Assembly (NCBI GenBank): GCA_050014495.1
Contig: JBEKDF010000003.1
Location: 32,001-96,000 of the forward strand
DNA from: Candidatus Bathyarchaeia archaeon
Lineage (GTDB): Archaea; Thermoproteota; Bathyarchaeia; TCS64
Length of the DNA stretch: 64,000 bases
Direction: 5' to 3'
The notes under the pieces were generated by a model. The model made no database searches and had not been told where the DNA came from. It saw only the letters and a program-made list of their open reading frames with translations. Shown in pieces: positions 3,205 to 35,463 of the stretch; within the stretch, counting starts at the first letter, position 1, and every line of letters begins with the position of its first letter. Made by a program: the position numbers and the translations under genes.

Positions 3205-3699
3205 CTAGGCGAGTTTAACGTTTCCCCTCTCGATGGCGGCTGCCCCAGTCCTACTCATCTCCTCTATCCCAATTGGAGCGATCCGCTTCAGGAACTCATT
3301 AATCTCATCGGTGGGTCCAGTGACCTCGGCTATTAATATCTCAGGCTCAACGTCGAGTATAAGACCGTGGTAAGCGTTCACCGTGTTAACAGCTTCGATT
3401 CGCGCAATTGGGTCTGAAGTCTTCAATTTAATCAGGAGAAGTTCCCTACTCAGCGTCCTGATGGGGTCGAGGCGCTTTACCTTGACAACATCGACCATCT
3501 TGTCGAGTTGCTCCACTATCTGGTTGAGGACACGACTTTCCGCGTCGACGACGACAGTCATTCTACTTAGAGGGCTCCCCTCGACTGGACCGACTGTTAG
3601 GCTAGTAATGTTGTATCCTCTACGCCTGAAGAGGTTGGAGACCTTGAAAAGGACGCCAGGCTTATTCTCGACAAGGAAGCTGACTGTATGCAGCGGCAT
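3205..3699 (-). CDS. ilvN: acetolactate synthase small (regulatory) subunit, copy 1
   Basis: ACT domain LVENKPGVL...FRRRGYNI, C-terminal SRTG; adjacent to ilvB. Confidence 0.93.
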   Translation of the reverse strand: MPLHTVSFLVENKPGVLFKVSNLFRRRGYNITSLTVGPVEGSPLSRMTVVVDAESRVLNQIVEQLDKMVDVVKVKRLDPIRTLSRELLLIKLKTSDPIARIEAVNTVNAYHGLILDVEPEILIAEVTGPTDEINEFLKRIAPIGIEEMSRTGAAAIERGNVKLA

Positions 3700-3700
3700 A

Positions 3701-5386
3701 TCATGCGCCTCCTAGGAGGATATCTTTGAGTCCCATGCCCGGTGGGATCATAGGGTAGACATTCTCCTCGGGGTCTATCGGAACATCGATTACTGTTGTC
3801 TGCTTCTCTTTGACGCTTCGCCTGATGGCTACTTCTATCTCCTTTATAGAGTCCACCTTTACCCCCGTTGCCCCATAGGTCTCGGCGAGCTTCGCGAAAT
3901 CTGGGTGCATTGGTCTCTTTATAGTGCTATATCTACGGTTGTAGAATAGGCGCTGCCACTGGGCGACCATTCCTAAGACGCCGTTGTTTAGTATTACGAC
4001 TGTTATGGGAAATCCCTCATCGACGGCTAGTGCTAAGTTGTTCTCCGTCATAGCGAAACTGCCATCTCCCGAGATGTTGAGGACAGGGAGATCCGGCCTC
4101 GCAGCCTTAGCCCCGATGGCTGCTGGTGTGCCCCATCCCATCGTGCCTAGTCCCCCACTTGTGAAGAACTCACCTGGGCCTCGGACATCGTAGTGCTGCG
4201 CCGCCCACATTTGGTGCTGCCCCACATCGGTGACCACAATGCTATCTGGTGGCATCGCCCTTCTGATAGCCTTGATTACCTCTGGACCCGAGAGTGGTGA
4301 GTCGCTGTCCAAGATGTTTGTTTGTGCTCTGAGCTCCGCTATACGCTTCACAAGAACGACATCAGTTGGCATTGTAGATCTCTGCTGGGCGATCTTCTCC
4401 CTAATTCCCCTGATAGCTATCTTAGCGTCCCCAACTATGCGGGTGATGCTGTCAACGTTCTTGTCTATCTCACTCCGATCGACGTCGATGTGAATTATCC
4501 TCGCGTTTGGAGCGAAGCCACTGAGGGCACCTGTTGTGCGGTCGCTGAAGCGTGCCCCGACTACGAGGAGGACGTCGGCTTCTGGTACTATGTAGTTTGC
4601 CTCGATGCGTCCATGCATGCCACAGAGACCGAGGCATAGTGGATGGTTGCTTGGTATAGCCCCCTTACCCATTAAGCTGTGAGCTACAGGCGCTTGGAGC
4701 ATTTCAGCGAGTTCAACTAACTCCATCGTTGCTCCCGAAGCTATCGCTCCCCCGCCCGCAATAATGACGGGTCTACGCGCCTTCGAGAGTAGAGTCGCAG
4801 CCCAATATATCTCCTGAGGATTAGGGTCAGTACCAGGGTGGTAACCACGGAACTCGACCTTATCTGGGAAGATCATATCTGCCCTGTCAGTCTGAGTGTC
4901 CTTTGGGATGTCGACAAGTACTGCTCCCTTCCTCCCCGTAGAAGAGAGATAAAATGCTGACTTGATGGCGTGCGGTATCTCCGCAGCCTCCATGACCTGT
5001 ATATTATGCTTGGTGACGGAGGCGGTGATACCTATTATATCAACCTCCTGGAAGGCGTCTGTGCCAACCATGTTTAATGGGACCTGCCCAGTGAGTGCAA
5101 CGACGGACGAAGAGTCGAGTTGTGCAGTTGCGAGGCCTGTTACTATGTTCGTAGCTCCCGGGCCACTCGTAACCTGCACTACGCCGGGTCTTCCGGAGAC
5201 GCGCGCGTAGCCGTCCGCCATGTGAGTGGAGCCTTGCTCATGGACTCCGCCGACGTAGCGGATCTTCGAATTAAGCAGTTCGTCGCATATTGGCATGATC
5301 GCAGCGCCAGTAATACCGAAGAGATACTCGACGCCCTCCCTCTCAAGCGCCTTCACATAAGCCTCAGCGCCAGTCATTTCAGGCAT
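3701..5386 (-). CDS. ilvB: acetolactate synthase large subunit, copy 1
   Basis: HEQG, TSGPGATN, GTDAFQE, DVGQHQMW, GDGSF...NN TPP motif; start set at MPEMTG (5386) after AAGGAG. Confidence 0.95.
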   Translation of the reverse strand: MPEMTGAEAYVKALEREGVEYLFGITGAAIMPICDELLNSKIRYVGGVHEQGSTHMADGYARVSGRPGVVQVTSGPGATNIVTGLATAQLDSSSVVALTGQVPLNMVGTDAFQEVDIIGITASVTKHNIQVMEAAEIPHAIKSAFYLSSTGRKGAVLVDIPKDTQTDRADMIFPDKVEFRGYHPGTDPNPQEIYWAATLLSKARRPVIIAGGGAIASGATMELVELAEMLQAPVAHSLMGKGAIPSNHPLCLGLCGMHGRIEANYIVPEADVLLVVGARFSDRTTGALSGFAPNARIIHIDVDRSEIDKNVDSITRIVGDAKIAIRGIREKIAQQRSTMPTDVVLVKRIAELRAQTNILDSDSPLSGPEVIKAIRRAMPPDSIVVTDVGQHQMWAAQHYDVRGPGEFFTSGGLGTMGWGTPAAIGAKAARPDLPVLNISGDGSFAMTENNLALAVDEGFPITVVILNNGVLGMVAQWQRLFYNRRYSTIKRPMHPDFAKLAETYGATGVKVDSIKEIEVAIRRSVKEKQTTVIDVPIDPEENVYPMIPPGMGLKDILLGGA

Positions 5387-5451
5387 AAATGGATACTCCT
5401 TGATACTTTTCTCGTTTCGATGATCCATAAATCGTAGTCTCGGATGGATAT

Positions 5452-5478
5452 CTAGTGGCTAAGAATACGATTCCCCAT
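5452..5478 (-). other. leader mini-ORF 2 of ilvB copy 1 (MGNRILSH)
   Basis: ATG GGG AAT CGT ATT CTT AGC CAC TAG, starting immediately after the stop of mini-ORF 1. Confidence 0.45.
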
Positions 5479-5523
5479 TCAACTATCCCCCATATTCGGG
5501 GGCTCAACAAAGCAATACCCCAT
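5479..5523 (-). other. leader mini-ORF 1 of ilvB copy 1 (MGYCFVEPPNMGDS) with internal hairpin
   Basis: 45-nt ATG..TGA unit containing the CCCCC-GAATAT-GGGGG hairpin; mirrored at 25346-25390. Confidence 0.45.
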
Positions 5524-5590: not shown

Positions 5591-7246
5591 CTACTTCTGG
5601 GCTAAATTAATGACCGCGGAGACGAGCGCCTCCTCTGTGTCTGAGTGAATGATCCTTATGCGATAGAGCTCGGCGAGTCTTAGTTCCTCAGTCTTGATGG
5701 GCATGAGGGAGGCGATGAGGTATCTCGCAGAGGCGATGTCGGGGATAACATTGCTCTTCTCAATAATCTTGTTGTAGATCGGCTCATTTAAGACGACATC
5801 TATACAGAGGCGACTATCCTCGATGGTGGGGTCCATGGCAAGGATGTCAAAGTCATAATTCTTGGATGATTTCCCGATGACAATACCTGGGGCCTCAGCT
5901 TCCCAACCAGCCTCCTCAAATCCAACCTTGATCTTCTTTGATAGAAGCTCGGCCCTCCTCCGTTGGGCTGCGAGACGAAGTCTCTCCTGCAGAGGCTTGC
6001 CAAGTTCCCAGTAGTCCTTGAAAACAAGCATCATCGTCCCCACATATGCAGACATATTGGACCAGATGGTGCGATTCTGCGATACGGCGTATGGCACGTT
6101 GAGGAGGACCTCCTTTCCGTCAATTGCTACGAATACGAGGTCGGTAACGGCAGCGTTCTCCGAGACAACTATCGGGGTGTCTGCGATTCTACTCACCTCC
6201 GGTAAAGTTTCATTATCTGTTCGGGTTAATAGCCTCATTTTGATACCATTTCTCGCCATATCCTCAAGCATGGAGAGCGGTACAGGGAGCGTTGTCGCGT
6301 TCCTAGCGATAATGTCTATTGATTGACTGGCCTTAGCTATCATCTCACTGAAGATTGTCGCATACTCCTCTCGCGTAGTATAAGTCCTGATTTCAGGTGT
6401 AGCTTCCCCCGTCTTGATTGACTCTATAACGAGCTCTGCATCTGGGGCAAGGCTCCAAAGTGCATCATAGAATATCCCCAGGGCTTCCACATAGCTTGGC
6501 GCGTCTGTCCAAAGGCCTGTGTCGGAATTCGTAGTCATGCTCATGGAGTCGTCCATGGCGACTGTTGTGAGGGCTTCCCCCTTATCGATTATAGCGAATC
6601 TTATCGGATTCTGGAGGGTTATGTGACGGGTCTCAGTAAAGCTACTGTATGGCTCAACTTCCTTCCAGTTCTCTATATCAATTTGGGTGAGAATCCTGAT
6701 CTTCTTCCCTTGCCTGTTTAACGCTTTCAGTTTGTCATCAAGCCCCCATAGACTGAGGCGAGCGAGGTCACTTGTCGTTGTGACAAGCCTGACTGTCTCA
6801 TGGGTCCTGTCGTACATTTCAAGGAGAAGTTCGAGAACCTGCTGTCTACCCTGGAATATGCGGAACCTCGGCTCCTCTGGACGCTGCTCCGAACCACGGG
6901 CAAGGTTCTCCCACTCCCTTATGAAGGTGTCCTGATTTACCTCGAGATCGGTGAGCGTCTGGCGGAGACCCCCCAATTGACGGTCTATGACACTTCTCAG
7001 TGGGGCAGCGATGAACTTGACAGGCCTCCCCATGACTCGCTGGACGAACTCCTTCTCTTCTAACACCTTTAGGCTCCTGTAAGCCTTCATGCGGTTTAAG
7101 TTGAATCTCCTGGCGACAACTCGCGCGGGTGTTGGACCCGATGCTGAAAGGAAGACGTAAATTTCTGCCTCCTCCTTTTCGAGTCCAAAGCTCTTTAGCT
7201 TGCCTGCGAGCCTCTCGGTAGCCATGGTTTTGTTCTTTCCATCCAT
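5591..7246 (-). CDS. TrmB-family transcriptional regulator (wHTH, two effector-like domains, C-terminal PD-(D/E)XK-like domain)
   Basis: FGL...EAEIYVFL, Y..LK.LEEK.FV....GRP.KFIA, QGRQQV, DxxEAL repeats; C-terminal GKSSKNYDFDILA. Confidence 0.8.
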   Translation of the reverse strand: MDGKNKTMATERLAGKLKSFGLEKEEAEIYVFLSASGPTPARVVARRFNLNRMKAYRSLKVLEEKEFVQRVMGRPVKFIAAPLRSVIDRQLGGLRQTLTDLEVNQDTFIREWENLARGSEQRPEEPRFRIFQGRQQVLELLLEMYDRTHETVRLVTTTSDLARLSLWGLDDKLKALNRQGKKIRILTQIDIENWKEVEPYSSFTETRHITLQNPIRFAIIDKGEALTTVAMDDSMSMTTNSDTGLWTDAPSYVEALGIFYDALWSLAPDAELVIESIKTGEATPEIRTYTTREEYATIFSEMIAKASQSIDIIARNATTLPVPLSMLEDMARNGIKMRLLTRTDNETLPEVSRIADTPIVVSENAAVTDLVFVAIDGKEVLLNVPYAVSQNRTIWSNMSAYVGTMMLVFKDYWELGKPLQERLRLAAQRRRAELLSKKIKVGFEEAGWEAEAPGIVIGKSSKNYDFDILAMDPTIEDSRLCIDVVLNEPIYNKIIEKSNVIPDIASARYLIASLMPIKTEELRLAELYRIRIIHSDTEEALVSAVINLAQK

Positions 7247-7348
7247 CTTTTAAATTGTTCGTTCATTTGTTACAATCAATATGTACGTTCTATTGTTACT
7301 GATCTAAGGTTATCCCTGCGACACCGGAGCTAAGTTCAGGCGTGTGTC

Positions 7349-7615
7349 ATGAAGAGGCTCATACTAAGGAGCAAGGACAATTTGTGGCCGACTGTAGTGT
7401 GGCAGGGATCGCAGCTCGTCGTCTATTATTTAGGCGAAGACGAGGACGATGTCGAGATAAGGGAGACGCGCGAGTTAGATTTCGAGGAATTCTTCCTACA
7501 TCTCGACCGTGGTGGCTCAGTGTTTGTAACCATGAACCCCCACTCGGAGTTACCTTATCTCAATTGTCCTCTAGTATCAGAGCCAGGGGATGAGCTTCTT
7601 CAGGACAATTTTTGA
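7349..7615 (+). CDS. small acidic hypothetical protein upstream of TFB
   Basis: ATG-started 88-aa ORF directly upstream of and co-oriented with tfb. Confidence 0.55.
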   Translation: MKRLILRSKDNLWPTVVWQGSQLVVYYLGEDEDDVEIRETRELDFEEFFLHLDRGGSVFVTMNPHSELPYLNCPLVSEPGDELLQDNF

Positions 7616-23987: not shown

Positions 23988-25208
23988 CTACCTTAGAGAC
24001 CCATAGTCGAAGGGTCTCTTAGGGTCAGCAACGGGCGCCTTGACTGTGAATAGATCCGTGTACTTGAGGCCGGAGCCTGTGTTGAAGATGACGACGCGCT
24101 CGTTTCTTTCAACCTCCCCCTCTTCCACCATCTTCCTGAGAGCGGAGATGGTTGCAGCGCCTTCGGGGCACGCGAAGATTCCCTCTAGGCGACTTATCAG
24201 GCGGACGTCAGCCATAAGCTCATCATCAGTTACCGCGATGGCGGTTCCGCCACTTTCTCTCACCGCCTTAAGGATTAGGAAGTCGCCGAGGGCCTTCGGG
24301 ACTCTCAAACCGGACGCTAAAGTGTGTGCGTTTTCAAAAAACTCGCTCTCATCCTTTCCCTCCACAAAGGCCTTGATGATTGGGCTACAACCTTCTGCTT
24401 GGACGCTCACCATTCTGGGTCGCTCGCTCCCTATCCAACCCATCTCCTCGAGCTCGTCGAAGACCTTCCACATTCCAATGATTCCCGTGCCTCCGCCAGT
24501 GGGATAAATGATGACATCCGGCAGCTTCCAATCAAGCTGCTCCGCGACCTCGAGGCCCATCGTCTTCTTACCCTCAATCCGGTAGGGCTCTCCGAGAGTG
24601 GCTACGCTGAACCAAGCCATCTCCTGCTCACCGTCGCGGACGAGCTTCCCCGCATCGCTTATGAGACCCTTCACATAAACAACTTTAGCGCCAACAACGT
24701 CAGATTCTACAGCGTTGACCTTTGGAGCGTCCTCTGGCATGAAGACGTAAACCTCTAGACCCGCACGTGCCCCGTAGGCAGCCATCGCACCCGCAGCGTT
24801 ACCAGCTGATGGGAGTGCAACACGCTTAATTCCAAGCTCCTTCGCCCTGCTGATGGCGACGCTAAGGCCCCTCGCCTTGAAGCTACCGGTGGGGATGACT
24901 CCCTCGTCCTTGACAAGGAGGTTAGATAGACCCAGGGACTCACCTAAACGTGGTGCTGGGGTGAGTGGGGTCCACCCCTCCCCGAGGGTAACGATGTTCT
25001 GCTTTCTTTTCACCGGAAGAATCTCCATGTATCTCCACATCGAGGAGACTCTCCCAACGAGTTCCCGTTTCGTAATCGTCTCTTTCGCTGCCTCTAGGTC
25101 ATATCTAGCGAAGAGGGGTTTACCGCACTTTCTACAGACTGTCTGAACCTGATCGGCGTCGTGGAGTTCACCACACTTCGAGCACTCTAGGTGAGTTAGG
25201 TTACTCAT
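23988..25208 (-). CDS. thrC: threonine synthase
   Basis: N-terminal CxxC..CxxC, TLGEGWTP, PTGSFKARG, SAGNAA, EGKKT. Confidence 0.9.
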   Translation of the reverse strand: MSNLTHLECSKCGELHDADQVQTVCRKCGKPLFARYDLEAAKETITKRELVGRVSSMWRYMEILPVKRKQNIVTLGEGWTPLTPAPRLGESLGLSNLLVKDEGVIPTGSFKARGLSVAISRAKELGIKRVALPSAGNAAGAMAAYGARAGLEVYVFMPEDAPKVNAVESDVVGAKVVYVKGLISDAGKLVRDGEQEMAWFSVATLGEPYRIEGKKTMGLEVAEQLDWKLPDVIIYPTGGGTGIIGMWKVFDELEEMGWIGSERPRMVSVQAEGCSPIIKAFVEGKDESEFFENAHTLASGLRVPKALGDFLILKAVRESGGTAIAVTDDELMADVRLISRLEGIFACPEGAATISALRKMVEEGEVERNERVVIFNTGSGLKYTDLFTVKAPVADPKRPFDYGSLR

Positions 25209-25287
25209 GAATCCACTCCTATGGTTTACGGGTCTCGGCGGTGTTAAGTTTAGCGTGGTACAAACATCATACTGTAATTATCTTCAC

Positions 25288-25300
25288 AAACTTTTTATTT
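25288..25300 (+). promoter_or_regulatory. putative BRE/TATA box of the ilvBNC operon
   Basis: AAACTTTTTATTT upstream of the leader; similar AAACCCTTTTATT upstream of ilvB copy 1. Confidence 0.45.
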
Positions 25301-25345
25301 AGTGCCGCTTATTTCTTGGCTACATACAGTTTGGAGATTGGTTTC

Positions 25346-25390
25346 ATGGGGTATCGTTTTATCATTGCCGCCGAGTTGAGGGTGGCGTAG
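25346..25390 (+). other. leader mini-ORF 1 of ilvB copy 2 (MGYRFIIAAELRVA) with internal hairpin
   Basis: 45-nt ATG..TAG unit containing the GCCGCC-N8-GGTGGC hairpin. Confidence 0.5.
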
Positions 25391-25414
25391 ATGGGGTATC
25401 GCTTTATTCGGTAG
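25391..25414 (+). other. leader mini-ORF 2 of ilvB copy 2 (MGYRFIR)
   Basis: ATG GGG TAT CGC TTT ATT CGG TAG directly after the previous stop. Confidence 0.5.
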
Positions 25415-25521
25415 TACAACACCCGTGGAGTGTCCCCAGTTCTTAATTTGGTTTAGTTCCTCAGTGATGGGCTTAGTCGCTTGGCTTGGTCCCCGATTCT
25501 ACGATTTGGAGGAGTTCAAGT

Positions 25522-27213
25522 TTGGTTGAGATGGCTGGTACTAAGGCATTCGTAAAGTCCCTTGAGTTGGAGGGTGTGAAACACGTCTTCGGGCTACCTG
25601 GCGGAGTAGTCATCCCGTTATGCGATGAGATTCTTAACGGAGACTTCCGTTTCATCCTTGCCCGGCACGAACAGGGAGCAGCACATATGGCTGATGGATA
25701 TGCCAGAGCCACTGGGGGGGTGGGTGTTTGCCTCGCGACGTCCGGCCCAGGTGCCACTAACCTCGTCACCGGGGTAGCGTCTGCCAATATGGACTCAAGC
25801 GCAGTCGTCGCCTTCACGGGGCAAGTGACTCGTGCAACGATCGGCACCGATGCCTTCCAGGAGGTAGACATCATCGGGTGTAGCGCTTCTGTGACCAAGT
25901 ACAATATGCAGGTGAGGAAGGCCTCTGAGATACCGAGAGCGGTTAAGGTCGCTTTCCAGATCGCCTCGACGGGGAGGAGGGGTGCAGTCCTCGTAGATTT
26001 ACCTAAGGACGTCACGACCGACGTCGAGGACATCAGCTTCCCCGAGACCGTGAAGCTCAGGGGGTATCACCCCAACTATCAACCGGACCCACGCGAAGTT
26101 GAGTGGGCCGCGACGCTCCTCGCTAAGGCTCAGCGCCCCGTCGTTGTAGCCGGGGGCGGGGTCGTGAACTCCGGCGCGACACGCGAACTCGTTGCCCTTA
26201 GTGAGTACCTTATGGCGCCTACCGCAACTACCCTCATGGGCAAGGGCTCCTTCCCAGCCGACCACCCACTCAGCCTCGGCCTATGCGGGATGCATGGCAC
26301 ACAGGCAGCTAACAACCTCGTCCCCGAGGCGGACGTCCTCTTAATTGTCGGAGCGCGCCTCAGCGACAGGACGACGGGGGCAGTGAAGAGCTTCGCGCCC
26401 AACGCTAAGATTATCCACCTCGATATTGACAGGAGCGAGATCGACAAGAACGTGGAGACAGTGACTCGCGTCGTCGGGGACGCTGCCCTAGGCTTACGTG
26501 GCCTTCTCTACAACGTGAGCAAGCTCCGCGCGGGTGGTGAGGTGAGCTCCGAGTGGAGCAAGAAGGTGGCGGAATTCCGCTGCCAAGTCAACTCGAACGG
26601 TAATGGACATAAGGAGGGATATCTAAGAGCCCCCGACGTCATCAGAGCGCTCCGCAAATCACTCCCCCGTGAGTCGATCGTCACAACCGAGGTGGGGCAG
26701 TGCCAGATGTGGGCCGCGCTCCACTACGACGCCTACGACCCGAGGACCTTCTTCACTAGTGGTGGCCTCGGCACGATGGGTTGGGGTTTCCCAGCCGCCA
26801 TCGGCGTAAAGGCTGCGAGGCCCAAAGTCCCGGTCGTGGATATAGCTGGGGATGGCAGCTTTGGCATGACGGAGAACAGTATGGCGACGAGTGTCGAGGA
26901 GGACCTGCCTGTCGTAGTAGTTGTGTTGAATAATCAGATGCTAGGCATGGTCGCCCAGTGGCAGCGTCTCTTCTTTGACCACCGCTACTCTGCGGTGAAG
27001 TTGAAGGGTAACCCTAACATGGTGAAGCTTGCTGAGGCGTATGGGGCTGAGGGTGTCAGGGTAGACACCTTGGAGGCTTTCGAGTCCGCAGTGAGGCGAG
27101 CGATTAAGAGCGACGTTTCGACAGTCATCGATGTTCCGATAGACCCGGAGGAGAACGTATACCCGATAGTTCCACCTGGTGCGGGATTGAAGGACGCGCT
27201 TCTGGAGGCTTAG
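25522..27213 (+). CDS. ilvB: acetolactate synthase large subunit, copy 2
   Basis: FGLPGG, ARHEQGA, TSGPGATN, GDGSF..NN; TTG start (MVEMAG) after GGAGGAG. Confidence 0.95.
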   Translation: MVEMAGTKAFVKSLELEGVKHVFGLPGGVVIPLCDEILNGDFRFILARHEQGAAHMADGYARATGGVGVCLATSGPGATNLVTGVASANMDSSAVVAFTGQVTRATIGTDAFQEVDIIGCSASVTKYNMQVRKASEIPRAVKVAFQIASTGRRGAVLVDLPKDVTTDVEDISFPETVKLRGYHPNYQPDPREVEWAATLLAKAQRPVVVAGGGVVNSGATRELVALSEYLMAPTATTLMGKGSFPADHPLSLGLCGMHGTQAANNLVPEADVLLIVGARLSDRTTGAVKSFAPNAKIIHLDIDRSEIDKNVETVTRVVGDAALGLRGLLYNVSKLRAGGEVSSEWSKKVAEFRCQVNSNGNGHKEGYLRAPDVIRALRKSLPRESIVTTEVGQCQMWAALHYDAYDPRTFFTSGGLGTMGWGFPAAIGVKAARPKVPVVDIAGDGSFGMTENSMATSVEEDLPVVVVVLNNQMLGMVAQWQRLFFDHRYSAVKLKGNPNMVKLAEAYGAEGVRVDTLEAFESAVRRAIKSDVSTVIDVPIDPEENVYPIVPPGAGLKDALLEA

Positions 27214-27215
27214 AA

Positions 27216-27725
27216 ATGAGCGAGATGCATGTAGTCGCGTTCTTGGTCGAGAATAGGCCGGGTGTGCTGTTTAATATAAGCAACATGTTCCGTCGGAAGA
27301 ACTTCAACATCCACAGCATCACTGCTGGGACAGTGCTCGACGACGAAACGGTGAGAATAACCATCGTCGTTCAAGCAGACTCCAGAGGCGTCAACCAGGT
27401 TGTGGAACAGCTCGATAAGATGGTTGACGTGGTGGAAGTAAAGCGCCTTGACCCGCTTCGTACAGTGAACAGAGAGCTGGCACTTGTGAAGCTAACGACG
27501 ACAGACCCGATGGCGAGAGAGGATGCCCTACGGTTAGTGAACGAATACCACGGTCTGATCCTGGATATCGAGCCGGACAACCTTATAGCCGAGGTCACGG
27601 GTGAGTCTGAGGAGATAGACGCGTTCATAGAGGCTGTTATGCCCATAGGGGTGGAGGAGATCTCGAGGACGGGAGTGACAGCTATCGAGAAGGGACGGCT
27701 AAGACTAGAGAAGGGTGAGTACTGA
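27216..27725 (+). CDS. ilvN: acetolactate synthase small subunit, copy 2
   Basis: LVENRPGVL...FRRKNFNI ACT domain, SRTG. Confidence 0.93.
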   Translation: MSEMHVVAFLVENRPGVLFNISNMFRRKNFNIHSITAGTVLDDETVRITIVVQADSRGVNQVVEQLDKMVDVVEVKRLDPLRTVNRELALVKLTTTDPMAREDALRLVNEYHGLILDIEPDNLIAEVTGESEEIDAFIEAVMPIGVEEISRTGVTAIEKGRLRLEKGEY

Positions 27726-28714
27726 TGGTGAAGGTATACCACGATAAAGACATAGATGACAAGGTTCTGAAGGGGAAGACCGTGGCCGTAATCGGCTACG
27801 GTAGCCAGGGTAGGGCTCAGGCCCTCAACATGAAGGATAGCGGAGTTAATGTCGTAGTGGGTCTCCGCCCCGGAGGGAAGAGTTGGAAGCAGGCCCTAGC
27901 AGATGGCGTTAAGGTGACGACGGTCCTCGAGGCCGCACAGCAGGGGGATATAGTCCTCATGCTTGTCCCCGATATGGCGCAGCCCACAGTGTGGAAGGAA
28001 GAGGTCGCCCTAGCTATGAAGAAGGGGAAAACCCTCCAGTTCGCCCATGGATTCAACATACTGTACGGCGCTATCAAACCGCCTAAAGACGTCGACGTAA
28101 TAATGGTGGCCCCAAAGAGCCCCGGTGCAGAGCTCAGACGCCAATACGAGGCCGGCTTCGGCGTTCCATCACTTGTAAGCGTCCACCAGGATGCTTCTGG
28201 AAAGGCGTTACAGACAGCACTCGCCCTCGCGAAGTCGCTGGGCAGCGGAAAAGCAGGGGTCCTAGAGAGCACCTTCAAGGACGAAACTGAGGAGGACTTA
28301 TTTGGAGAGCAGGCTGTCCTCTGTGGTGGGGCTGACCAGCTGATCCGTAGGGGATTTAAGGTCCTCATTGATGCGGGTTATCCGCCAGAGCTAGCTTACT
28401 TCGAGGTCTGCAACGAGTTGAAGCTAATCGTTGACCTCATCTACAAGTCGGGGATAGGTGGGATGTACCGCGCTGTAAGCGACACAGCGAAGTGGGGTGG
28501 CCTCACTGTCGGCCCCGTTATCGTCGACGACCGCGTCGAGGAAAACATGAGGAAGGTGCTCAAGGACGTGCAGAGTGGTAAGTTTGCGAAGGACTGGATT
28601 GCCGAGTACAAAGATGGCTCGAAGCACTTTAAGGTCCTCATGGACGAAGTCGACGCACTGGAAATTGAGAAGGTCGGTAAGCAGATCAGGAAGATGAGTG
28701 GTCTCGAGAAGTAG
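27725..28714 (+). CDS. ilvC: ketol-acid reductoisomerase
   Basis: GYGSQG, FAHGFNI, MVAPK.PG, ETEEDLFGEQAVLCGG. Confidence 0.97.
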   Translation: MVKVYHDKDIDDKVLKGKTVAVIGYGSQGRAQALNMKDSGVNVVVGLRPGGKSWKQALADGVKVTTVLEAAQQGDIVLMLVPDMAQPTVWKEEVALAMKKGKTLQFAHGFNILYGAIKPPKDVDVIMVAPKSPGAELRRQYEAGFGVPSLVSVHQDASGKALQTALALAKSLGSGKAGVLESTFKDETEEDLFGEQAVLCGGADQLIRRGFKVLIDAGYPPELAYFEVCNELKLIVDLIYKSGIGGMYRAVSDTAKWGGLTVGPVIVDDRVEENMRKVLKDVQSGKFAKDWIAEYKDGSKHFKVLMDEVDALEIEKVGKQIRKMSGLEK

Positions 28715-31485: not shown

Positions 31486-32236
31486 ATAGCTGTTTACTTA
31501 TCTCCTCGACGTCAGCGGGTGGATATCCAGAGTAGTACTTGCTGAAGTAGGCGTAGACATCACGCCCTGACTCGAGGTATCTCTTCGCCTTATTGGCCCA
31601 TTCAGCTGTCTCTATCCCCCTTTCCACCTCGACAATCCCCCTCTGTCCATTCACGGCTTTTCTGTCTCCTTCGAGGCGAATATAAGCGAAGCTGGCGGTC
31701 TCGACATTTGCAGCGTCCGACCTGTTTGTCAACGCGAGGGCGACGCCATGGTCTCTGAGTAACTTGTAGGTCTCCTCGGTGAACCAGCGCTTATTCCTGA
31801 ACTCGGCGGCGATGAGCCTCTTCTTAGGGATCTTCTCCAACAGGTCGTTGAGGGCAGTGTGAGTGGGCTTTAGGAATGGTGGAAACTGGAGGAGCATTGG
31901 CCCCAACTTCGCCCCGAGAATATCTATGTGACTGAGGAAGACCTCAAGCTTCCCCGAGTCGTAGACGAGGCCGGGGACATGGGTCACTGTCTGTGGGAAC
32001 TTTACAGCGAACCTGAAGTCATCCGGCACCGCGTCCCTCCACGCCTCAACGGTTGAAATGGAGGGTATCCTGTAGAAAGTGGCATCGACCTCGACGGAGT
32101 TCATCACTTTGGCGTACTCGGTGAGGTACTCAGTGGTCCTTGTCCCCTCTGGGTAGAGCTTACCTACCCAGAACCTGTAGCTCCACCCCATCGTGCCTAG
32201 GTAGGCTACTCGACCCGCTTCTTGAAGAGGAGCCAA
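31436..32236 (-). CDS. DUF72 family protein
   Basis: GTMGWSY..W...YP, VEVDATFYRIP, LLQFPP, EFRN..W, YIRL.G. Confidence 0.9.
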   Translation of the reverse strand: MAPLQEAGRVAYLGTMGWSYRFWVGKLYPEGTRTTEYLTEYAKVMNSVEVDATFYRIPSISTVEAWRDAVPDDFRFAVKFPQTVTHVPGLVYDSGKLEVFLSHIDILGAKLGPMLLQFPPFLKPTHTALNDLLEKIPKKRLIAAEFRNKRWFTEETYKLLRDHGVALALTNRSDAANVETASFAYIRLEGDRKAVNGQRGIVEVERGIETAEWANKAKRYLESGRDVYAYFSKYYSGYPPADVEEISKQLFTHPTNAGTLSSKPLP

Positions 32237-33597
32237 TTCTTCTCCCCAGCCTTCCTGAAGCGGACGAGCTCGTAAGGCCCCTTAAGCCGCTCTCCGTGGA
32301 TGACGAGCTCTATCTTCTCCTCCCCCCACTCCTTGGCCTCATAGATGCCTCTGTCCCATATCTTGACAGTTCCGGCGCCGTATTCGCCTTCGGGGATGAT
32401 TCCTTCGAAGCCACTGTAGTCTAGAGGGTGATCCTCAACTGCGACTGCAAGGCGCTTGTCCCCTACCTTCTCAGGGGGACCCTTTGGCACCGCCCAACTC
32501 TTCAGAACTCCGTCCCTCTCAAGGCGGAGGTCCCAGTGGAGGTGGCTCGCGTGGTGCTCCTGCACAACGTAGATGTTTTCCTTCAGCTTCGTCGCCTCCC
32601 CTACGGGCTCGGGGCTCTTTGAGAAGTTCCTTTTCGCGTTGTAGTCTTCGAGGGTCACAGGTCTCACCTGTGATAATGTGCAGTCAAGGGGTTTTTTATC
32701 GGTTCTTAGTCTGATGAAACGCGGGGCACGCAAACGGTTGTCGTCCGTTAGGTTCTGGTAACCCACCTCAGCGATGACCATTGGCTTCAGCCACGTAGAA
32801 CCAGAGGGAATGTCGGTTGCTTCGAGCTGCTGCTCCGCCGTCTTATAGGGGCGGAAGGTGGCGAGTAACTCCTGGAGTGACTTATCCGTGAACCCAGTCC
32901 CCACCCTGCCCACGAATGTGAGTTTATCCCTCTCATATAGCCCCAGCAGCAACGCCCCGAAGCTATAAGCCCTGATCCCCGTCCCCCTCGTGTAGCCGAC
33001 GACGATGCAATCCACCGTCTTGACGCTCTTCACCTTAAGCCAATCCCGGCTCCTCTCCCCGGGGCGGTATGGGCTATCAATCCTCTTCGCCACGACCCCC
33101 TCCAACCCCTTCGCTACGGCGGCCTTGTAGTAGGCTTCCCCCTCCCCGATGACGTAGCTAGAGACGACGACATGCTTTCCATCCCTAAGCGAATCCCTAA
33201 GGATTGTCTTCCTTTCGCTAAGTGGCTTACTCGTCAGAGTTATCCCGTCTTTCTCTAAAATGTCGAAGATTACGTAAGTGCAGGGTATCTCGCGAGCCTT
33301 ATGCTCTATTTCCCCCTGCTTTGAGGCTTGTAGTCGCTTCGCCACCGCTTGGAAGTCGGGCCTGCCCCCATTCATCACGATTATCTCCCCATCGATAACA
33401 ACTTTGGATGCCAACGTGGAGAGCTCTGTGAGTTCGGGGAACTTGCGGGTGATATCGTTGGAGTTCCTGCTCGTGATGCTTAGCGTCTCCCCAATTTGGG
33501 CTATGGCACGGATGCCGTCCCACTTTACCTCGAAGAGCCACCCCGATCCACTGAAGGGGGCGTCAGTGGGCTCCGCGAGCATCGGCTTGTATTTCAT
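32206..33597 (-). CDS. NHEJ ATP-dependent DNA ligase fused to a C-terminal LigD 3'-phosphoesterase domain
   Basis: EVKWDG, DGEI, FDIL, EGVVAK, WLKVK; C-terminal VQEHHASHLHWDLRLE, SWAVPKG, EDHPLDY, YGAG.V.IWD. Confidence 0.93.
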   Translation of the reverse strand: MKYKPMLAEPTDAPFSGSGWLFEVKWDGIRAIAQIGETLSITSRNSNDITRKFPELTELSTLASKVVIDGEIIVMNGGRPDFQAVAKRLQASKQGEIEHKAREIPCTYVIFDILEKDGITLTSKPLSERKTILRDSLRDGKHVVVSSYVIGEGEAYYKAAVAKGLEGVVAKRIDSPYRPGERSRDWLKVKSVKTVDCIVVGYTRGTGIRAYSFGALLLGLYERDKLTFVGRVGTGFTDKSLQELLATFRPYKTAEQQLEATDIPSGSTWLKPMVIAEVGYQNLTDDNRLRAPRFIRLRTDKKPLDCTLSQVRPVTLEDYNAKRNFSKSPEPVGEATKLKENIYVVQEHHASHLHWDLRLERDGVLKSWAVPKGPPEKVGDKRLAVAVEDHPLDYSGFEGIIPEGEYGAGTVKIWDRGIYEAKEWGEEKIELVIHGERLKGPYELVRFRKAGEKNWLLFKKRVE

Positions 33598-34391
33598 CTC
33601 TTCTTCATCTGCTGGAGTGTCTCCTCAAGCGCCACCATGAGCTCCTTGACCTCCTCCCTCTTCTCCGGCTTCTCCACTTTGATTATTTCCCCCTTCAACT
33701 TCTGTTTGATGAGCTTCTCCACGTTCTCCCTGTAGGTGTCTTTGTACTCGGTGATGTCGAACTCACCGGTGAGGTTGTCGAGGATCTTAAAGGCGAGTTC
33801 AAGCTCCTTCTTGCCCGGCTGCTTGAGCTCCTTAATATCCTTAACTGTGCCAGGGTCGATGACCTCGTTAGTGTACCTAAGCGTGGTGAGGATGAGAGCC
33901 CCCTTATAGGCATGTATAAGGACTGGGTACTCCTTCGTCCGCATCGTGTAGCGGCCTATCCCCGCCAATCCCTTCTTTTCAAGCGCCGAGTAGAGGAGCC
34001 CATAGGCGTCGCCGCTCTTGTCGGGACCCAGGATGTAGCTACTCTGGAAGTAGAGGGGATCGACCCCGAGATACTGGACGAACTTATCGACCTTTATACG
34101 GCGATCCGATTCCGGGCGTATCGCGTCGAGTTCCTCCTTTGTAAAGGTGACGAACTCACCCTTCTGCACTTCATAGCCACGGGACACGTCCCCCCACTCA
34201 ACCACCTCGTTATCGTAAGTGCAGACCCTTTGGTATCTGAGGGGGCACCCGTCCCTCTTCCTGAGGAAGTGGAAGCTGTAGCTCTGGTCCCTAATCATGG
34301 TGTAAAGCTTTACGGGCACATTTACAAGCCCAATGCTTATGGTACCGCTCCAGAAGCTCCTCCCCGGCGGAGCCTGTTCCTCTTCGCTCAA
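33594..34391 (-). CDS. ku: NHEJ DNA end-binding protein Ku
   Basis: RSFWSGTISIGLVNVPVKLY, RGYEV.KGEFV, YKDTYRE; ATGA overlap with the ligase. Confidence 0.95.
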   Translation of the reverse strand: MSEEEQAPPGRSFWSGTISIGLVNVPVKLYTMIRDQSYSFHFLRKRDGCPLRYQRVCTYDNEVVEWGDVSRGYEVQKGEFVTFTKEELDAIRPESDRRIKVDKFVQYLGVDPLYFQSSYILGPDKSGDAYGLLYSALEKKGLAGIGRYTMRTKEYPVLIHAYKGALILTTLRYTNEVIDPGTVKDIKELKQPGKKELELAFKILDNLTGEFDITEYKDTYRENVEKLIKQKLKGEIIKVEKPEKREEVKELMVALEETLQQMKKR

Positions 34392-34623
34392 GCCAAATTC
34401 CCTGTTTGAATCTCGGAACCCGCAGCCTTAACCTTTTCACAGTCTCAGTCCAGAAAATACTTGATTTGCCTTAGAAAATCCACTCGTAGTGCGCACAGGT
34501 GAGGAGATCTACGAAATTGGCCTGAAGCTCGCGACGGGAACTACTTAAGTAGCCCCGAATCTCAGCTTCGGAAAGCCTTTCTCCAGATTCTGAGGATTTT
34601 AAGGGAAAGAAGCTCTCAAGAAT

Positions 34624-35463
34624 TCAAGTCTTCTTAGTCTTCCAGAACTCCTTCCAGACGTCAACCCTGTCGAGGACATTATCTATCCTGAGCTTGCTGG
34701 GGTCTAGTCCTTTCAGCTCATCCCATGTGAGAGGGGTTGAGACCGTCGCAGTCGGAGTAGCCCTGAGACTGTAGGGGCATGCCATCGTCCGCCCATGGCC
34801 GTTCTGCGGGTAATCTAGGTAGACAGTACCAGGCCTCTTCTGCGCCTTCTCGGAGGAGACGATTCCCGTCTCTTTAGCGAGCTCAATGCCTAACTTATGG
34901 GCGTAAGCACGGGTTTCGTCAAATGTCTCCTTCCGATCCGTTGGTGCGATAATGTGTAGTCCCCTCTTTCCCGAGGTCTTCACCCATGCCTTGAGCCCCT
35001 TCTCCTTGAGCTTCTCCCTGATCAATCGGGCGACCCTTCCCGCCTCCGCCATCCCCGCTGGGGGTTGCGGGTCAAGGTCGAAGAGAATTATATCTGGGTG
35101 ATCCAGCTTATCGATCCTCGCTAGGGGAATGTGTAGTTCAAGAGCTGCGAGGTTGGCTAGCCAGATAAGGGTGTCGAGGTCGTCGCAAACTATGTAATCG
35201 AGCTCTCTACCCGCAGCCTCGGAGTAAGAGTGGTGGAGCTTCACCCAGTCGGGTGTCCCCTGTGGAGCGTCCTTGCCGTAAAAGCCCTGAGTTTCCACCC
35301 CATCCGGATACCGGGTTACGACTAGCGCCCTCTCCTCTAGGAAGGGCAACATCATGGGAGCCACCTTGATGTAGTACTTCACGACATCGAGCTTCCTGAC
35401 TCCCACAACGGGGTAGAGGACCTTCTCCAAGTTCGTGAACTGGACCCTCGTTAGCTTCTCCAT
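34624..35463 (-). CDS. NHEJ primase-polymerase (stand-alone LigD POL)
   Basis: TNLEKVLYP, RYPDG, FDLDP, KTSGKRGLH, DYPQNG.GRT..PYSLRA. Confidence 0.93.
   Translation of the reverse strand: MEKLTRVQFTNLEKVLYPVVGVRKLDVVKYYIKVAPMMLPFLEERALVVTRYPDGVETQGFYGKDAPQGTPDWVKLHHSYSEAAGRELDYIVCDDLDTLIWLANLAALELHIPLARIDKLDHPDIILFDLDPQPPAGMAEAGRVARLIREKLKEKGLKAWVKTSGKRGLHIIAPTDRKETFDETRAYAHKLGIELAKETGIVSSEKAQKRPGTVYLDYPQNGHGRTMACPYSLRATPTATVSTPLTWDELKGLDPSKLRIDNVLDRVDVWKEFWKTKKT

Follow-up and report, generated by a model that had tools for sequence, protein, structure and literature searches.

Bacterial ilv, trp and his operons use leader-peptide attenuators that read charged tRNA. For the bacterial +1 frameshift site of prfB, a 2016 review describes a P-site CUU that shifts to UUU, cites the variation between GGGG and GAGG at the site as a sign of a Shine-Dalgarno (SD) role, and ranks a slow A site as most important for +1 shifts (PMC5009743). 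By the account of that review, no hungry-codon frameshifting was known to yield products useful under starvation (PMC5009743), and a review of 2021 counts a single programmed frameshift studied in an archaeal chromosome, which goes in the -1 direction (PMC8211752). The leaders of several amino-acid genes in a Bathyarchaeia archaeon and its relatives carry a six-codon cassette that may be read as a hungry-codon +1 ribosomal frameshift site of prfB-like build, with a fusion or translational coupling as its output; the probability of this reading can be put at about 0.85. It is also quite likely that the amino-acid regulons of Bathyarchaeia share a portable hungry-codon +1 module with a swappable sensor codon, deployed in parallel as an OR arrangement (ilvB) or in series as an AND arrangement (hisG). 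A literature search, with supplements and most subscription papers outside its reach, found no description of the cassette.

The window, i.e., the whole stretch of 64,000 nucleotides analyzed here, holds two ilvB-ilvN pairs: copy A on the + strand, with ilvC next, and copy B on the - strand (Table 1). Each ilvB is preceded by two tandem mini-ORFs, and the first-pass annotation had described all four, with Ile, Ile, Val and Leu at codon 6 and a hairpin in both first units; the positions, sequences, codons and hairpins were all confirmed. That annotation had also seen CTACGATTT downstream in both leaders and proposed that it pairs with the repeat. The element is indeed present in both leaders of this genome, but it is not a conserved feature: exact matches occur in only 1/32 and 1/18 ilvB leaders of the two types, both being the window's own, and two matches were reached in 2/100 shuffles. 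Its double occurrence is therefore treated here as coincidence, and the proposed pairing falls with it. As an observation apart, window positions 32206-35463 (- strand) code for Ku and for LigD, the latter split into a ligase/phosphoesterase gene and a polymerase gene; the set for non-homologous end joining is thereby complete, which is uncommon in archaea.

Table 1. Features of the two ilvB loci, in window coordinates.
Feature	Position	Strand	Remarks
TATA-like box of ilvB-ilvN-ilvC promoter (predicted)	25292-25301	+	from sequence; transcript start expected near 25322
SD-like GGAGA serving unit-1 start	25333-25337	+	from sequence
Copy A unit 1 mini-ORF	25346-25390	+	MGYRFIIAAELRVA; stop TAG
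Copy A unit 1 codon 5	25358-25360	+	TTT
Copy A unit 1 sensor codon	25361-25363	+	Ile ATC
Copy A unit 1 hairpin	25367-25386	+	GCCGCC/GGTGGC; 3 nt past sensor codon
Copy A unit 2 mini-ORF	25391-25414	+	MGYRFIR; codon 5 TTT 25403-25405; sensor Ile ATT 25406-25408
Copy A +1-frame relay ORF (entry by predicted shift)	25404-25529	+	TGA 25527-25529 overlaps ilvB start
Ribosome-binding site GGAGGAG of ilvB copy A	25508-25514	+	9 nt 5' of TTG 25522
ilvB copy A, acetolactate synthase large subunit	25522-27213	+	TIGR00118, 709.7 bits, above cut-off
ilvN (copy A), small subunit	27216-27725	+
ilvC, ketol-acid reductoisomerase, after copy A ilvN	27725-28714	+
Copy B unit 1 mini-ORF	5523-5479	-	MGYCFVEPPNMGDS; TTT then Val GTT; hairpin CCCCC/GGGGG
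Copy B unit 2 mini-ORF	5478-5452	-	MGNRILSH; ATT then Leu CTT
Copy B +1 relay ORF, common to both units	5379-5510	-	TGA 5381-5379 overlaps ilvB start (ATG 5386)
ilvB copy B	3701-5386	-	TIGR00118, 690.5 bits
ilvN of copy B	3205-3699	-

The cassette has six codons: a start codon, GGG or AGG, two further codons, NTT and the sensor codon, after which the zero frame soon stops. Its nucleotides are near-invariant, third codon positions included, and the units of two-unit loci are spaced by multiples of three (45 in 33 loci, 42 in 9). A separate SD lies ahead of the mini-ORF start, visible as G-richness at -13 to -7 across 148 units. A strict pattern was found in 42/61 related genomes, including 36/36 of the family, against 2 control matches in the 61 genomes; a looser pattern was found in 186/401 genomes of the class, against 10 control matches. 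The repeats of the cassette are thus real and far beyond chance, and its distribution is patchy, with 215/401 class genomes being without the pattern. In a separate set of distant loci, 9/30 looked like chance matches. The locus set used below comprises 107 cassette loci (103 from relatives and four from this genome, leaving out 11 matches that were not listed and one that sits at the end of a contig), divided among cimA-type genes (24), ilvB resembling copy A (32) or copy B (18), valS (26) and threonine dehydratase-like, i.e., ilvA-like, genes (7). Among 80 listed titles of cimA loci, 74 name Bathyarchaeia or subgroups thereof, 4 are generic archaeal, and 2 (L200 and L270) come from one bacterium-titled record; the proteins of the latter resemble those of Bathyarchaeia, and the record likely reflects misbinning.

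The putative shift site follows a strict rule. Codon 5 is NTT in all units, and it is TTT in 133/133 units with a purine-initial codon 6; among units with a codon 6 other than TGG, ATT is seen solely before Leu CTY codons (14/16), while before TGG, in 28 trpE cassettes, it is CTT in 13, GTT in 10, ATT in 4 and TTT in 1. For every codon 5, the P-site tRNA would retain at least two of its three pairs after a +1 slip, and the G34 tRNAs required for this re-pairing are encoded in this genome according to ARAGORN predictions. The same run called one tRNA Pyl (CTA) and one Stop (TTA). Codon 2 in the trpE cassettes is GGG in 14 and AGG in 14, an alternation suggesting that it is kept as an SD-like block rather than as a residue; the G(A/G)GG block forms in silico a duplex with the 16S tail of this genome at -6.1 to -8.6 kcal/mol (raw energies). 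The block sits 6 nt before codon 5, as against 3 nt at bacterial +1 sites. Furthermore, where codon 2 is AGG, the +1 frame has a TGA ahead of the shift site, so that this frame is not readable from upstream. A reading in which the +1 frame is entered from upstream and codes for a conserved W-G-I peptide was accordingly rejected, 14/28 trpE cassettes having TGA at the W position and the cimA gene of this genome having TAA just before it. A -2 shift was thought less likely, given that two T's are kept and the bases 5' of them vary.

Codon 6 tracks the pathway of the gene that it precedes. It is Ile at 24/24 cimA loci, Val at 26/26 valS loci and Ile in 12/12 units of ilvA-like genes, counts that are drawn from related genomes and are not independent trials. 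The ilvB leaders of the copy-A type carry Ile or Val and then Ile, those of the copy-B type in most cases Val and then Leu, and in one locus (L340, G021:C1:498056-498160) three units 45 nt apart, with Val, Leu and Ile, stand before one ilvB. The loci span 12 genera for copy-A-type ilvB, 12 for valS, 3 for copy-B-type ilvB and 1 for ilvA-like genes. The trpE set consists of the best 30 loci among 58 genomes with a match, those most similar to a cassette-bearing query, and was gathered by protein similarity with codon 6 unconstrained; codon 6 is TGG (Trp) in 28/28 of its cassettes, from seven families. At hisG, a His-codon unit is present in 13/20 loci of one clade, and 12 of the 13 (leaders in L465-L484) carry a further unit, which the +1 frame of the first one runs into in phase; in all 12 two-unit loci the +2 frame ends at the hisG start, and such serial His cassettes are predicted to act as an AND gate. 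The His cassette is absent at the 18 other hisG loci located among 30. Upstream of hisG in family f9 (L441, L445, L446, L448, L450), an inverted repeat GTGGGA...TCCCAC stands right after the TATA box and may be an operator of lineages that lack the cassette.

Across the class, a search by strict pattern for cassettes with a non-NTN codon 6 gave 23 matches in 22/401 genomes: 9 at trpE, 2 at a methyltransferase-like ORF and 12 apparently by chance. The second group (L123:677 and L124:1501, two genomes of the genus) has ATT followed by CCA (Pro) and a +1 fusion to the methyltransferase-like ORF, with no evident pathway match between the Pro codon and that ORF. Relaxed scans over 15 genomes (69 loci) linked the cassette to matching genes solely for Ile, Val, Leu, Trp and one His match. 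In this genome, no cassette precedes the ileS-like, leuS-like, leuA-type or ilvA-like genes, or thrC, which lies divergent from the ilvB copy A leader (window 23988-25208, - strand). The pathway matching bears directly on the alternative that the +1 shift is real but occurs at a fixed rate that merely dampens expression, with codon 6 being no sensor. Frameshifting at a set ratio is a recognized class in the 2016 review (PMC5009743), but a codon that tracks five different pathways is unneeded at a fixed-rate site, and this alternative is improbable.

At cimA and at nearly all trpE loci, the gene itself lies in the +1 frame. In this genome, a cassette on another contig (C32) stands at the start of a gene of the LeuA/CimA family: its mini-ORF, MGYRFIW, is cut off immediately by a stop; the gene occupies the +1 frame, in which another stop closely precedes it and a start codon is missing. 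A search pattern that fixed neither start nor frame matched at least 120 cimA loci from named genomes. In all 120 of the matches listed, the gene is in the +1 frame of the cassette and the zero frame stops after 6-16 codons; among the same 120 matches listed, the mini-ORF starts with ATG in 112 and GTG in 8, 81 have no in-frame start inside 25 codons, and in the other 39 an ATG, GTG or TTG does occur in frame, its place varying from locus to locus. A protein-led look at 40 further 5' ends found 33 with a normal start and no cassette and 7 with a cassette variant (6 by pattern, and 1 shortened form by eye), of which 6 are without an in-frame start. At trpE, the gene is in the +1 frame of the cassette in 28 of the 30 best loci. 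Among 120 database homologues of the cimA product, starts are called upstream of the cassette in 54, after the first catalytic motif in 47 and between the two in 19, an inconsistency that the +1 geometry of the cassette would explain.

The product of the cassette-bearing gene is most likely CimA, the enzyme of the isoleucine route: of the 37 homologues with a name (from the 120), 32 are annotated as citramalate synthase and 4 as isopropylmalate synthase, and the product is without a His that is present, in the matching strand, in solved LeuA structures and in this genome's paralogue; the NCBIfam profiles failed to separate CimA from LeuA. In the cimA gene of this genome (G000 C32 ~6980-7499, - strand), codon 149 of the +1 frame is a TGA inside the gene, a position at which 23 relatives are open or cut by the locus end, and this TGA would be either a mutation or an assembly error.

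At ilvB, valS and ilvA-like genes, the +1 frame is a short relay ORF rather than the enzyme. It is open to within 20 nt of the gene at 82/83 loci, against about 19/83 expected from shuffled spacers and 0/83 observed for each of the other two frames; the sole closed relay, at an ilvB locus (L047), looks on inspection like the result of a single-base indel. The relay ORFs come in 6-17 distinct lengths per gene, and their peptides differ in sequence as well. In most cases the relay stop overlaps the start codon of the gene, mainly by 4 or 8 nt at ilvB and ilvA-like genes, with 4-35 nt at valS. A conserved mid-relay stretch, reading ADKV or ADT in the +1 frame, is seen in most valS leaders (e.g., G000 C44 5470-5495). 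In this genome, the cassette on C44, with a Val codon, precedes a valS-type gene identified from its translation, and in each of the four loci of this genome the +1 frame either constitutes the gene or reaches its start. In two-unit loci, the +1 frame of unit 1 runs open into unit 2 in 41/42. The one exception is copy A of the window, where the +1 frame of unit 1 is closed, in the sequence as assembled, by TGA 25377-25379, the sequence having TTG at 25376-25379 where most close orthologues read TGG. Judged by frame, unit 2 (Ile) alone connects to this ilvB: its +1 frame, which the first-pass annotation had not noticed, is open for 45 codons and closes across the ilvB start (TTG 25522, ATG 25531), and ilvB orthologues have ATG or TTG at the position of the copy A start.

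A second alternative, of still smaller probability, is that ribosomes initiate at a non-standard codon within the +1 frame itself, with the GGGG block as its SD and the mini-ORF competing or stalling. The Val units do have a +1-frame TTG about 7 nt after the GGGG block, and the +1 reading of codons 2-4 (W-G-I-A/V-L) has a conservative look. Nevertheless, no common start codon can be found, the triplet being TTA throughout cimA, TTT throughout trpE and TTC for His and Leu units, and a direct start gives no reason for the re-pairing rule of codons 5 and 6.

The earlier annotation had favored a translated sensor of branched-chain amino acids keyed on codon 6, acting as a translation-coupled or RNA-structure switch. 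The sensor idea gains support from the conservation of the cassette upstream of orthologous ilvB genes, and also at cimA, and from its place relative to the transcription start, the units lying downstream of a TATA-like box; such a box is found 40-59 nt before the first matched unit in 86/103 loci (raw count). The RNA-structure part did not stand up. Folding of the two ilvB leaders is no better than that of shuffles (z 0.31 and 0.56), Rfam gives no match at the gathering threshold or at E-value 1, and a scan for bacterial-type terminators finds 0 sites in 25150-25620; a T-box or a ligand-binding riboswitch was rejected on the same folding and Rfam results. The ribosome site of ilvB shows no excess of pairing over shuffled leaders (unpaired fraction 0.39 vs 0.40 and 0.42 vs 0.43), on which ground its occlusion was rejected as the coupling mechanism. 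Attenuation does share with the cassette a short translated leader with a regulatory codon and a conserved hairpin, but there is a single matched codon per unit and no codon run, the folding, terminator, ribosome-site and Rfam results are as above, CTACGATTT is not conserved, and a leader that could refold is lacking at cimA and trpE, as is, for the most part, an in-frame start. Attenuation or a structural switch is thus highly unlikely, and the mechanism that the data do indicate, a +1 frameshift at codons 5-6, is absent from the first-pass annotation.

The hairpin itself is conserved in the first units of ilvB and in the valS units, being more stable than shuffles in 21/21 and 16/16 of the former and 25/26 of the latter; such conservation was not found in the last ilvB units or at cimA. 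In copy A, the unit 1 hairpin also covers the unit 2 ribosome site. The valS units have a hairpin without any second unit, for which reason a role as stimulator of the frameshift is preferred for the hairpin 3' of the sensor codon and is likely.

Two explanations at the level of DNA or transcription fare worse again. Known transcriptional slippage tracts are much longer than 3-4 T. If RNA polymerase dropped one base at the site and thereby put the gene in frame, the frame geometry would be identical, but the T run at the shift site has only 3-4 T and the pathway-matched codon would go unexplained, which makes slippage very improbable. A DNA operator or protein-bound RNA repeat, which would suit the near-invariant nucleotides, third codon positions included, and the direct repeats, is hardly credible given that free start positions are always ATG or GTG, the spacing is a multiple of three and the relation to the gene frame is kept.

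Returning to the hungry-codon +1 frameshift, the frame geometry, the codon match and the re-pairing rule are observations around which the following course of events might be envisaged. What conservation establishes is a start codon preceded by an SD, a zero frame of few codons and a pathway-matched codon 6. With the amino acid plentiful, the ribosome would read codon 6 and terminate a few codons on; with charged tRNA scarce, it would stall with the A site at codon 6 empty, and the peptidyl-tRNA on NTT could re-pair one base forward, a slip probably aided by pairing of G(A/G)GG to the 16S tail and, in first units and valS units, by the 3' hairpin. The shifted ribosome would then be in the frame of the enzyme itself at cimA and trpE, these genes lying in the +1 frame, or in the relay ORF that ends at the start codon of ilvB, valS and ilvA-like genes, from which relay ribosomes would reinitiate on ilvB. 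The upstream stop overlaps, or is close to, the downstream start, the arrangement expected for termination-reinitiation, and coupling at stop-start overlaps is demonstrated in the archaeon Haloferax (PMC6728339). Against the last of these steps, the ilvB ribosome site is a good SD without predicted occlusion and gives no sign of why ilvB would need the relay. Because the +1 frame is common to the tandem units of an ilvB leader, running short of any one of their amino acids would be enough: Val or Leu in copy B, and Val, Leu or Ile at the three-unit locus of G021.

If this is true, the cassette would join attenuation and T-boxes as a third ribosome- or tRNA-based mode of amino-acid sensing, and it would be an example from nature of starvation frameshifting that serves a function. 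An 18-nt element and the swap of a single codon would make both of the gaps noted by the reviews accessible to test. It would also offer a mechanism of amino-acid control in one of the most abundant archaeal groups of sediments, and a tunable one-codon sensor could serve synthetic biology.

The closest parallel might be struck with the bacterial prfB gene for release factor 2, which likewise has a short zero frame, an SD-like block varying between GGGG and GAGG, a product in the +1 frame and a P-site codon that can re-pair one base on, with CTT before TGG in 13/28 trpE cassettes as the counterpart; in both, a slow A site would act as the sensor, by prediction in the case of the cassette. The differences are that prfB has a stop codon in the A site, in the RF2 gene, where the cassette has an Ile, Val, Leu, Trp or His codon; that the SD-like spacing is 3 nt in prfB and 6 nt here; and that the cassette is archaeal, tandem and spread over many genes, biosynthetic or valS, often acting, as it appears, via a relay ORF and coupling. 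In terms of its build, the cassette would therefore work like prfB but is not a member of that class, having a sense codon in the A site and different genes. The +1 frameshift of antizyme is similar in joining a metabolite-responsive sensor with its effector and in shifting at the end of a short ORF1, features only predicted for the cassette, but it is eukaryotic, has a stop codon in the A site, senses polyamines and concerns one gene. With the bacterial attenuators the cassette shares the genes and, by prediction, a charged-tRNA signal read by a leader ribosome and the multivalent input of ilv, but it has no codon runs, terminator or antiterminator, and its output would be a change of frame. 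The frameshifts in the ketolide-induced ermC leader and in pheL, as given in the 2016 review, resemble it in that frameshifting in a leader ORF affects the downstream gene (PMC5009743), but they are antibiotic-induced or have no known regulon, and they lack a pathway-matched modular codon. Finally, fucA1 of Saccharolobus is, as predicted for the cassette genes, an archaeal chromosomal gene needing a frameshift, although there, in the 2021 account, the direction is -1, the site is an A-rich heptamer, a single gene is concerned and no signal is known (PMC8211752).
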